Shown one piece after another: positions 1,144-1,267 of a stretch of 62,278 nucleotides of DNA (positions within the stretch are counted from its first letter, which is position 1; each line of letters opens with the position of its first letter). Made by a program: the position numbers and the translations under genes. The notes beneath the pieces are model-generated. The model saw only the letters and a list, made by a program, of their open reading frames with translations, did no database searches and was not told the DNA's origin. Source of the DNA: Candidatus Xenobia bacterium (lineage in GTDB: Bacteria > Vulcanimicrobiota > Xenobia > Xenobiales > QWHO01); assembly GCA_045863235.1 (NCBI GenBank), contig BTUM01000047.1, positions 1 to 62,278 of the forward strand, given 5' to 3'.

Positions 1144-1267
1144 CGGAGGAGCCGCACCCCGACCTGAGAGGCTTACATACTGGACATGCCTTTTAAGCAT
1201 GCGGGGAGTTCGAATCTCTCCACCACACCACTGGTGAACACAGCCTTTCTGACTTGTGCGGCATCCG
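1144..1267 (+). ncRNA. Y RNA-like (YrlA-type) ncRNA 1 with a permuted tRNA-Lys(UUU)-like domain
   Basis: Closing stem GCCGCAC(1151-57)/GTGCGGC(1256-62) flanks CCCGA...CTTG; inner stem GAGAGGCT/AGCCTTTC; anticodon arm CATGC-CTTTTAA-GCATG; T arm GGGAG-TTCGAAT-CTCTC; closed acceptor-like hairpin CACCA-caccac-TGGTG; near a TROVE-like gene. Confidence 0.75.

Follow-up and report, generated by a model that had tools for sequence, protein, structure and literature searches.

What kind of RNA would carry an intact anticodon loop on a Y RNA-like stem, upstream of a gene for a Ro60-like protein? The question is raised by a 124-nt element on contig BTUM01000047.1 of a Candidatus Xenobia bacterium (assembly GCA_045863235.1). 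This element, RNA1 (1144..1267, + strand), lies near the start of the 62,278 nucleotides analyzed here, which are referred to as the window. A preliminary description had proposed a circularly permuted tRNA-Lys(UUU) mimic on a Ro-binding-type stem, whose anticodon loop could act as a decoy or sensor for anticodon nucleases such as PrrC.

Structure of RNA1

RNA1 comprises a Y-like handle and a tRNA mimic opened in the D loop, with its parts in the order GG remnant, anticodon arm, T arm, and looped acceptor. The 5' strand (1151..1173, +) and 3' strand (1242..1262, +) of the handle form a 7-bp outer helix (1151-1157/1256-1262) and an 8-bp inner helix (1166-1173/1242-1249), which enclose the tRNA-like part. 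Between the helices is an internal loop of 8 x 6 nt containing CCCGA, within the motif CCCGAC (1158-1163, +; family consensus CCYRAC), and the CUU of ACUUG (1252-1256); the G alone of CUUG is paired. The inner helix leads into a linker and UGG (1174..1183, +), the linker being single-stranded UACAUAC, which occupies invariant alignment columns and overlaps a YUAY motif like that of YrlA. There is no D stem, and its sole trace is UGG at 1181-1183, likely a remnant of the D-loop GG, a role that we infer. The anticodon arm (1185..1201, +) has 5 bp and the loop CUUUUAA (1190-1196), with anticodon UUU at 1192-1194, identical to the loop of the host tRNA-Lys(UUU). A variable region of 2 nt separates it from the T arm (1204..1220, +; loop UUCGAAU), after which a short, weak acceptor-like hairpin (1221..1236, +) pairs CACCA with UGGUG and places ACCA in its loop.

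The minimum fold of RNA1 was −45.0 kcal/mol (z −3.25), and 0 of 200 shuffles were equally stable. Pair probabilities were 0.85-1.0 for both handle helices, the anticodon arm (0.96-1.0 when taken singly), and the T arm. With the acceptor held in the tRNA-like register (first CACCA with UGGUG, 6-nt loop), the energy was −43.8 kcal/mol as against −45.0 for the minimum, and the pair probabilities of that register were 0.15-0.36. The hairpin has 4-5 bp in the genus of RNA1, compared with 7-8 bp in several relatives. The succession of anticodon arm and T arm was found 23 times in the genome and 0, 0, and 0 times in three doublet-shuffled genomes. This count, the z score of the fold, and the two-sided pair changes described below argue that the structure is not due to chance; RNA1 is a real, conserved structured RNA. 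The anticodon arm (CTTTTAA), T arm (TTCGAAT), and CACCA/TGGTG pairing of the preliminary description were thus all found in the order and at the places it had given, as was the near absence of a D arm. Its loop-closed acceptor is present, but as a weak hairpin, and the stem it had drawn with CCCGA opposite CTTG is an enclosing two-helix handle with a wide internal loop rather than the bulged helix of vertebrate Y RNAs.

Neither ARAGORN nor Rfam called RNA1 a tRNA or a Y RNA. At the gathering score, the only Rfam match in the whole window was a tRNA-Ser at 46622; at E values up to 10, positions 850-2000 gave six weak matches, including sX4 on both RNA1 and its neighbor RNA2 (E 2.5-2.9), none of them credible as family membership. 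Contigs from RNA libraries span RNA1 in runs X1, X2, and X4 (UUU) and X9 (GAU allele), and that of X5 covers the first third only; such contigs carry no information on transcript ends, strand, or level and may derive from DNA. They start at 980-1041 in X2, X4, X5, and X9, whereas the X1 contig extends upstream; as contigs cannot show starts, this is at most a weak hint at a promoter.

Genes and signals around RNA1

A σ70-like promoter (903..932, +) was found upstream of RNA1 (10/12; 1 found versus 0.1 expected), with an inverted repeat in its spacer that is a possible operator. A terminator-like hairpin (1101..1130, +) lies just upstream of RNA1 and is present in four genus sequences with a variable loop. 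Between promoter and hairpin, a 31-codon frame (976-1071, +) with a ribosome-site-like AGGA is intact in three of the four genus sequences and frameshifted in that of locus L002; it is possibly a translation-sensitive attenuator.

The gene at 1996..3432 (+), 730 nt downstream of RNA1 on the same strand, encodes a 478-aa protein for which Pfam gave a faint vWA match at most. A genome search with the TROVE family (PF05731) returned no match, this protein remaining below the cut-off. An alignment-based structure model (pLDDT 85) aligned by Foldseek with human Ro60 (E 2.8e-13, TM 0.70), Deinococcus Rsr (E 5.6e-13), and the Ro60 of Thermus phage phiLo (E 7e-12), and the Atlas comparison gave a TM of 0.77 over 446 residues. 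The best sequence match in the PDB was also phiLo Ro60 (E 0.044; 16-18% identity). The protein is predicted to have the Ro60 fold, a helical-repeat ring with a vWA domain, and it is likely the binding partner of RNA1. Its family extends to 2544 relatives among 8000 candidates scored. A second Ro60-like gene (6169..8334, +) has an N-terminal extension, and its Ro part (6934-8331) is 44% identical to the first protein. The interval between the two (3716-6148, +) holds a lipoprotein-like gene (DUF7453) and a partner gene; this pair has three further copies in the genome and is present in only 2 of the 80 loci compared below.

RNA1 has a companion in RNA2 (1778..1937, +), which has the same handle, an anticodon arm, a T arm, an 8-bp looped acceptor, and an extra hairpin (z −3.94). 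Its anticodon, at 1834-1836, is GCU, and relatives have UCC or UUA. A long GC-rich hairpin (1583-1635) precedes RNA2; it recurs at G000:C12:70364-70413 directly behind a tRNA-Pro gene, and also in sister genomes.

The other genes of the locus point to ubiquitin-like chemistry. Between RNA1 and this hairpin, the gene at 1311..1511 (+) encodes a putative ubiquitin-like modifier of 66 aa with a C-terminal Gly, which had no match in Pfam or NCBIfam. Farther downstream, 6-7 kb away, are a gene for a cysteine protein (8356..9183, +; 275 aa, invariant Cys254), a putative E2-like partner with no family, fold, or PDB match, and a ThiF/E1-like activating enzyme (9180..9821, +). The latter matches PF00899 (E 5e-31), so the E1 component of a ubiquitin-like conjugation system is present at the locus. 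Modeled together, the Ro-like and cysteine proteins gave a predicted complex with a score of 0.56 (best control 0.00), with contacts agreeing in at least 75% and a partner pLDDT of at least 54; scores of 0.60 or less were shared by 18 of 157 solved complexes and by both of the 2 passing mismatches among 215, and the prediction lends their pairing weak support. The small Gly-ended protein, the cysteine protein, and the E1 were encoded in 65, 56, and 53 of the 80 loci, respectively, some of which are short. A third cassette (G000:C28:14162-17120), compact and divergent, encodes the small protein, a Ro-like protein, the cysteine protein, and an E1, and no handle RNA was found near it.

Handle, anticodon, and cargo across relatives

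For comparison, the best 80 of 168 loci encoding a Ro-like protein were used, many of which are from Microcoleus and hence not independent. The handle pattern occurred in 75 of the 80 loci and in the window, hence in 76 of 81 sequences, with a total of 225 units. All of these share the strand of the Ro-like gene, and they usually form arrays, with 1 to 7 units per locus. A looser pattern gave 297 matches, 3 of them on the opposite strand and some false. In an alignment of 20 hand-picked RNA1-type units, 93.4% of cells were paired, and 15 of 24 pairs changed on both sides among these relatives, a level reached by 0 of 500 shuffles; slid controls were 33-50% paired. The handle thus covaries across phyla, and within the genus RNA1 is about 95% conserved outside the anticodon. 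The acceptor hairpin is not a consensus helix of this alignment because its length varies; examined singly, ten or so units have it with 7-8 bp. The covariation that the preliminary description had looked to homologues for is therefore present, and its central proposal, a Y-like RNA bearing a permuted tRNA mimic, is supported, given the neighbor with a predicted Ro60 fold, the covarying handle, and the lack of an att match. Where it had described one RNA, that RNA is real but turns out to be a single unit of a larger modular system.

Several units were observed outside or beside the standard arrangement. Stand-alone handle RNAs occur on contigs G000:C34 (~51900-52041, −; YrlA-like, 33.6 bits against the YrlA model) and G000:C67 (~180-289, −; D-anticodon(UUG)-T), and no Ro-like gene was found on either contig. 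ARAGORN calls the second of these a tRNA-Gln, which suggests that some handle RNAs may have been annotated as tRNAs by mistake. At L033:1827-4410 and L068:57-2284, and in L074 and L079 as well, a long tRNA array immediately precedes the cassette. Short palindromic repeats are inserted in T loops or hairpins of units, disrupting them, in loci L014, L025, L030, L042, and L118.

The anticodon differs between orthologues of RNA1: it is UUU in the window, GAU in four loci (L002, L082, L095, and L096), and UAA in L001, although the sequences differ pairwise at only 5-8 of ~120 sites outside it. A metagenome scan gave 3 matches: two were true orthologues, each with GAU, and the third, at the unrelated locus L097, was due to chance. 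In four related genus sequences, with columns picked after variation was seen, 5 of the 6 anticodon columns of RNA1 and RNA2 were variable. Third codon positions varied at 27 of 214 sites in the same sequences (Fisher p 2.6e-4 for the contrast with the anticodon), unpaired RNA positions outside the anticodon at 13 of 109, and intergenic columns at 48 of 219. The change of anticodon is not accompanied by a matching change of the acceptor. When units across the family were grouped at 85% identity or more outside the loop, 14 of the 23 clusters contained more than one anticodon and 9 a single one, and the Microcoleus-type RNA1 cluster had UAA in 20 of its 22 members. Switching is therefore lineage-dependent.

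The loops were surveyed in 161 distinct T-arm units, from which 86 loops of seven bases were taken with no condition on their sequence. Y32, U33, and R37 were retained in 60 of them, and these 60 carried 26 anticodons, among which UUU occurred once. The loop thus appears constrained to tRNA-like rules while its identity is exchanged. Within the genus, six loops were compared with those of the host tRNAs: four are identical to one of them (Lys UUU, Ile GAU, Ser GCU, and Gly UCC), and CUUAAGA (L001) and CUGCUCA (RNA2 of the window, without purine 37) match none. The claimed tRNA-Lys(UUU) mimicry is accordingly exact for the loop of RNA1 itself, but GAU and UAA in its orthologues and the single UUU among 60 loops do not bear it out for the family. 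The decoy or sensor idea gains from the rapid switching of the anticodon and loses its lysine and PrrC specificity as a family property.

The piece carried by the handle, or cargo, is also exchanged. A crude classifier, which missed the anticodon arm of RNA2 in the window, sorted the units into D-anticodon-T (the handle replacing the acceptor), anticodon-T-acceptor-D, YrlA-like T-acceptor-D, RNA1-type, and single-hairpin cargoes. The largest T-arm class, with 43 units, was YrlA-like and lacked an anticodon arm, and 98 handle matches had no T arm. Some cargoes have Ser- and Ala-like acceptor stems with NCCA. Others, among the units without a T arm, derive from 23S rRNA, an origin tested for two pieces, the host 23S rRNA being absent from the assembly: the cargo of L026 (7885-8082) matches Rfam LSU positions 1077-1160 (E 3.6e-14), and that of L021 (3392-3570) matches E. 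coli 23S rRNA at 28 of 29 nt. By motif, the L026 and L021 kinds recur in 10 and 11 loci, respectively. We take the two 23S-derived motifs to be the sarcin-ricin loop and helix 69. Comparison of one further cargo with tmRNA did not show a tmRNA origin. The RNA1-orthologous cargo in L003 has decayed and lost its tRNA look.

Further cargoes were noted in passing. The motif GCAAGCCUGA recurs at L013:5797-5908, L029:5735-5851, L068:3545-3658, and L043:5776-5917, often just before the Ro-like gene. The acceptor hairpin at L035:3074-3205 shares its stem and ACCA with the ends of the tmRNA of the window genome, and the short acceptor of RNA1 may be a worn form of it. At L003:2968-3121 and in several D-anticodon-T units the anticodon is UUA or CUA, in principle a reader of stop codons.

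The system also occurs in viruses: six viral contigs and one 595-kb phage record encode a Ro-like protein. Scanning the viral sequences with the bacterial handle pattern gave 0 matches. The viral handles, whose sequences differ from the bacterial handle, were located through the protein, and in at least five of the six contigs handle-like units with T arms, read by eye, lie among tRNA genes.

Relation to Y RNAs and possible role

On broad grounds RNA1 resembles a Y RNA, as it lies near a predicted Ro60-fold gene on the same strand and has its ends paired in a long stem with an internal loop. The known Ro60-site sequences (GGUCCGA with a single bulged C, or CGAA) are absent from it, CCYRAC ... 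ACUUG being present instead. RNA1 gave no match to YrlA (RF02553; gathering score 69), or to any Rfam model for Y RNAs, even at E 10, so this check, suggested in the preliminary description, came out negative. Near its 5' end the YrlA motif GNCGAAN0-1G is absent, and UUAC, which fits the YUAY motif, is present before the tRNA-like part. Membership in YrlA was rejected on score, arm order, and the GNCGAA motif. The label Ro-binding-type survives insofar as the partner has a predicted Ro60 fold and the handle covaries and travels with its gene; the YrlA GNCGAA and vertebrate GGUCCGA signatures that would normally accompany it are missing.

Several features are nevertheless common to RNA1 and YrlA (RF02553; PMC4201824; bioRxiv 10.1101/312249): a permuted tRNA body with a loop-closed acceptor stem and a T arm, a two-helix handle with YUAY and ACUUG, and a location shortly before, and on the strand of, a Ro60-fold gene. 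YrlA-order units of the RNA1 family scored 33.6 bits (G000:C34) and 30.9 bits (L021) against the YrlA model, both below the gathering score of 69. According to bioRxiv 10.1101/312249, YrlA keeps the D and T arms without an anticodon loop, whereas RNA1 keeps the anticodon arm without a D arm, which places the insertion of the handle at the D loop. The likely partner of RNA1, unlike that of YrlA, is not a Pfam TROVE member. One of the small RNAs encoded in series ahead of rsr in Deinococcus radiodurans (Yrn1/Yrn2 with Rsr, RYPER) is Yrn1, whose structure allows a T arm and an anticodon-like arm of 5 bp to be drawn, but not a complete D arm (PMC4201824). The same source gives it a 6-nt loop between the D-like and T arms; RNA1 differs from Yrn1 in its canonical 7-nt loop, looped acceptor, switching anticodon, and linkage to Ubl and E1 genes. 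In the Ro60 site of vertebrate Y RNAs, too, a terminal helix of 7 bp leads to a C-rich motif on the 5' side that ends in CCGA and faces CUUG, but there is a single bulged C and a 3-nt bulge (PMC4726728) where RNA1 has its 8 x 6 internal loop and no GGUCCGA. Phage phiLo has a phage-borne Ro60 with upstream RNAs, Yrl1 and Yrl2 (PMC12135203; PDB 9KOP, 9L5Y); these are CGAA-motif RNAs, the word anticodon is absent from PMC12135203, and the proteins are 16-18% identical. The spare tRNAs of phages (PMC11555353) and of the Anabaena trn operon (PMC8421152) are comparable as additional tRNA-like molecules that counter enzymes cutting tRNA, and for those of the operon a sponge function was speculated (PMC8421152); several family loci adjoin tRNA arrays. 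Spare tRNAs are complete and chargeable, whereas RNA1 is an incomplete mimic on a handle predicted to dock a protein. A literature search by title and abstract start found no account of this RNA family; reviews outside that search may describe parts of it.

One explanation, which we hold with about even confidence for and against, would account for these observations: RNA1 is one unit of a modular Y-like RNA family in which a conserved handle carries an exchangeable piece of the translation machinery, here an anticodon arm and a T arm, and this piece serves as a swappable bait for enzymes attacking tRNA and rRNA, perhaps in combination with tagging of a ubiquitin-like kind. The neighboring Ro60-like protein is the likely docking partner of the handle. 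A longer transcript would be processed to a ~120-nt RNA that is held at its handle by the Ro60-like ring, with the cargo displayed outside. RNA1 would be unusable in translation, as its acceptor end is a short closed loop, yet would show a real-looking anticodon loop, and in this way it would draw off or report anticodon nucleases. The anticodon would be retuned as the threat changes, and arrays would cover many targets, rRNA sites included; on this account UUU (Lys) is simply the present setting in the species of the window. In the least certain step, the small Gly-ended protein, the E1-like enzyme, and the cysteine protein would tag those that bind or cut the bait. Toxins that target translation attack sites of the kind found in the cargo. 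The lineage-specific rewriting of the loop, the toxin-target cargo, and the carriage by phages together point to biological conflict, for which reason the bait is ranked first among the roles. Against it counts that a decoy open to cleavage would poorly absorb a nuclease acting catalytically, as do the clusters with a single anticodon, the two loops that match no host tRNA, the decayed cargo of L003, the 43 YrlA-like units without an anticodon arm, the distance of 6-7 kb to the E1 and cysteine genes, and the handle-less cassette of G000:C28. There are precedents: YrlA has been proposed as a competitive inhibitor of anticodon nuclease (PMC7790460), and phage tRNA-Lys rescues phages from PrrC (PMC11555353). 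In its most ambitious form, which we regard as speculative and rather doubtful, the system would be an RNA-programmed surveillance device of bacteria and large phages, in which a Ro60-like ring loads interchangeable baits (anticodon loops, acceptor stems, rRNA toxin sites), captures or senses translation-attacking enzymes, and passes them to a ubiquitin-like tagging module, its specificity being reset through three anticodon bases.

The same cargo could instead dock normal translation proteins (synthetases, modification enzymes, elongation factors, or ribosomes), the anticodon picking the protein caught, and the Ro60-like particle would then sequester these proteins or deliver them to the ubiquitin-like module under stress. 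The span of the cargo, from tRNA arms and Ser- and Ala-like acceptor stems with NCCA to factor-binding 23S regions, suits this adaptor role, as do the Ubl, Cys, and E1 genes in 65, 56, and 53 of 80 loci and the tethering by known Y RNAs (PMC4201824). Host translation proteins are, however, near-constant between sister species, so fast anticodon switching is not predicted, and the location in viral tRNA clusters fits conflict better; we consider the adaptor unlikely. Rather improbable, too, is that RNA1 is a Y RNA of the classical sort, with a role in quality control as a link between the Ro60-like ring and PNPase or enzymes of RNA repair, a tRNA-like part that merely stabilizes it or attracts modification enzymes, and an anticodon that drifts. 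Such a role is established for Rsr and its Y RNAs (PMC4201824; PMC12135203), the handle layout and ACUUG are common to the YrlA consensus, the genome encodes RtcB, and the cargo is degenerate in some units. Drift nevertheless leaves unexplained why anticodon sites outpace third codon positions while loop positions 32, 33, 37, and 38 stay tRNA-like; the rRNA-derived cargo is not explained either, and the RtcB genes are on other contigs.

Three narrower readings fare worse. That RNA1 serves PrrC-type nucleases alone, as a decoy or sensor mimicking tRNA-Lys(UUU), would be in keeping with the loop that it shares with the host tRNA-Lys(UUU), with UUU in the covering contigs of runs X1, X2, X4, and X8, and with the targeting of tRNA-Lys by PrrC (PMC11555353). 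This reading is highly unlikely in view of GAU or UAA in the orthologues, the stem, which differs from that of the host tRNA-Lys, and the rarity of UUU in the family; the lysine reading may hold for the single allele of the window. It is very improbable that RNA1 supplies a spare tRNA, as a permuted precursor to be cleaved, ligated, and aminoacylated. RNase P does cleave the YrlA of M. smegmatis, whose acceptor has 7 bp, and CCA is added to it (PMC4201824); several relatives have 7-8-bp acceptors, and D-anticodon-T units score as tRNA in Rfam. RNA1 itself, however, has no D stem, a 2-nt variable region, a 4-5-bp acceptor, and no ARAGORN or Rfam tRNA call, and its acceptor does not change in step with the anticodon. 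An integration (att) scar or a decayed, functionless tRNA gene is hardly credible. Its one trace, 18 nt of the T arm that match the T arm of the host tRNA-Tyr (E 0.059), is the best other match in the genome; RNA1 matches the 3' end of neither host tRNA-Lys, the exact match that the preliminary description had named as grounds for a scar, both genes differing from it outside the loop, and ~95% conservation across the genus outside the anticodon together with a handle that covaries across phyla led us to reject the scar.

RNA1 is thus a Ro60/Y RNA relative with a new permutation and a switchable anticodon. The role of the tRNA-like part of bacterial Y RNAs was listed as unknown in 2014 (PMC4201824), and the inhibition of nucleases by that part is no more than a speculation in PMC7790460. 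With its orthologues, RNA1 forms a natural allele series in which a 124-nt RNA exists in three versions, distinguished chiefly by the anticodon, and with which the decoy or sensor idea becomes directly testable. Beyond RNA1, the locus leads to a Ro60-like family that lacks annotation, is associated with ubiquitin-like chemistry, and has RNAs presenting several components of the translation machinery.
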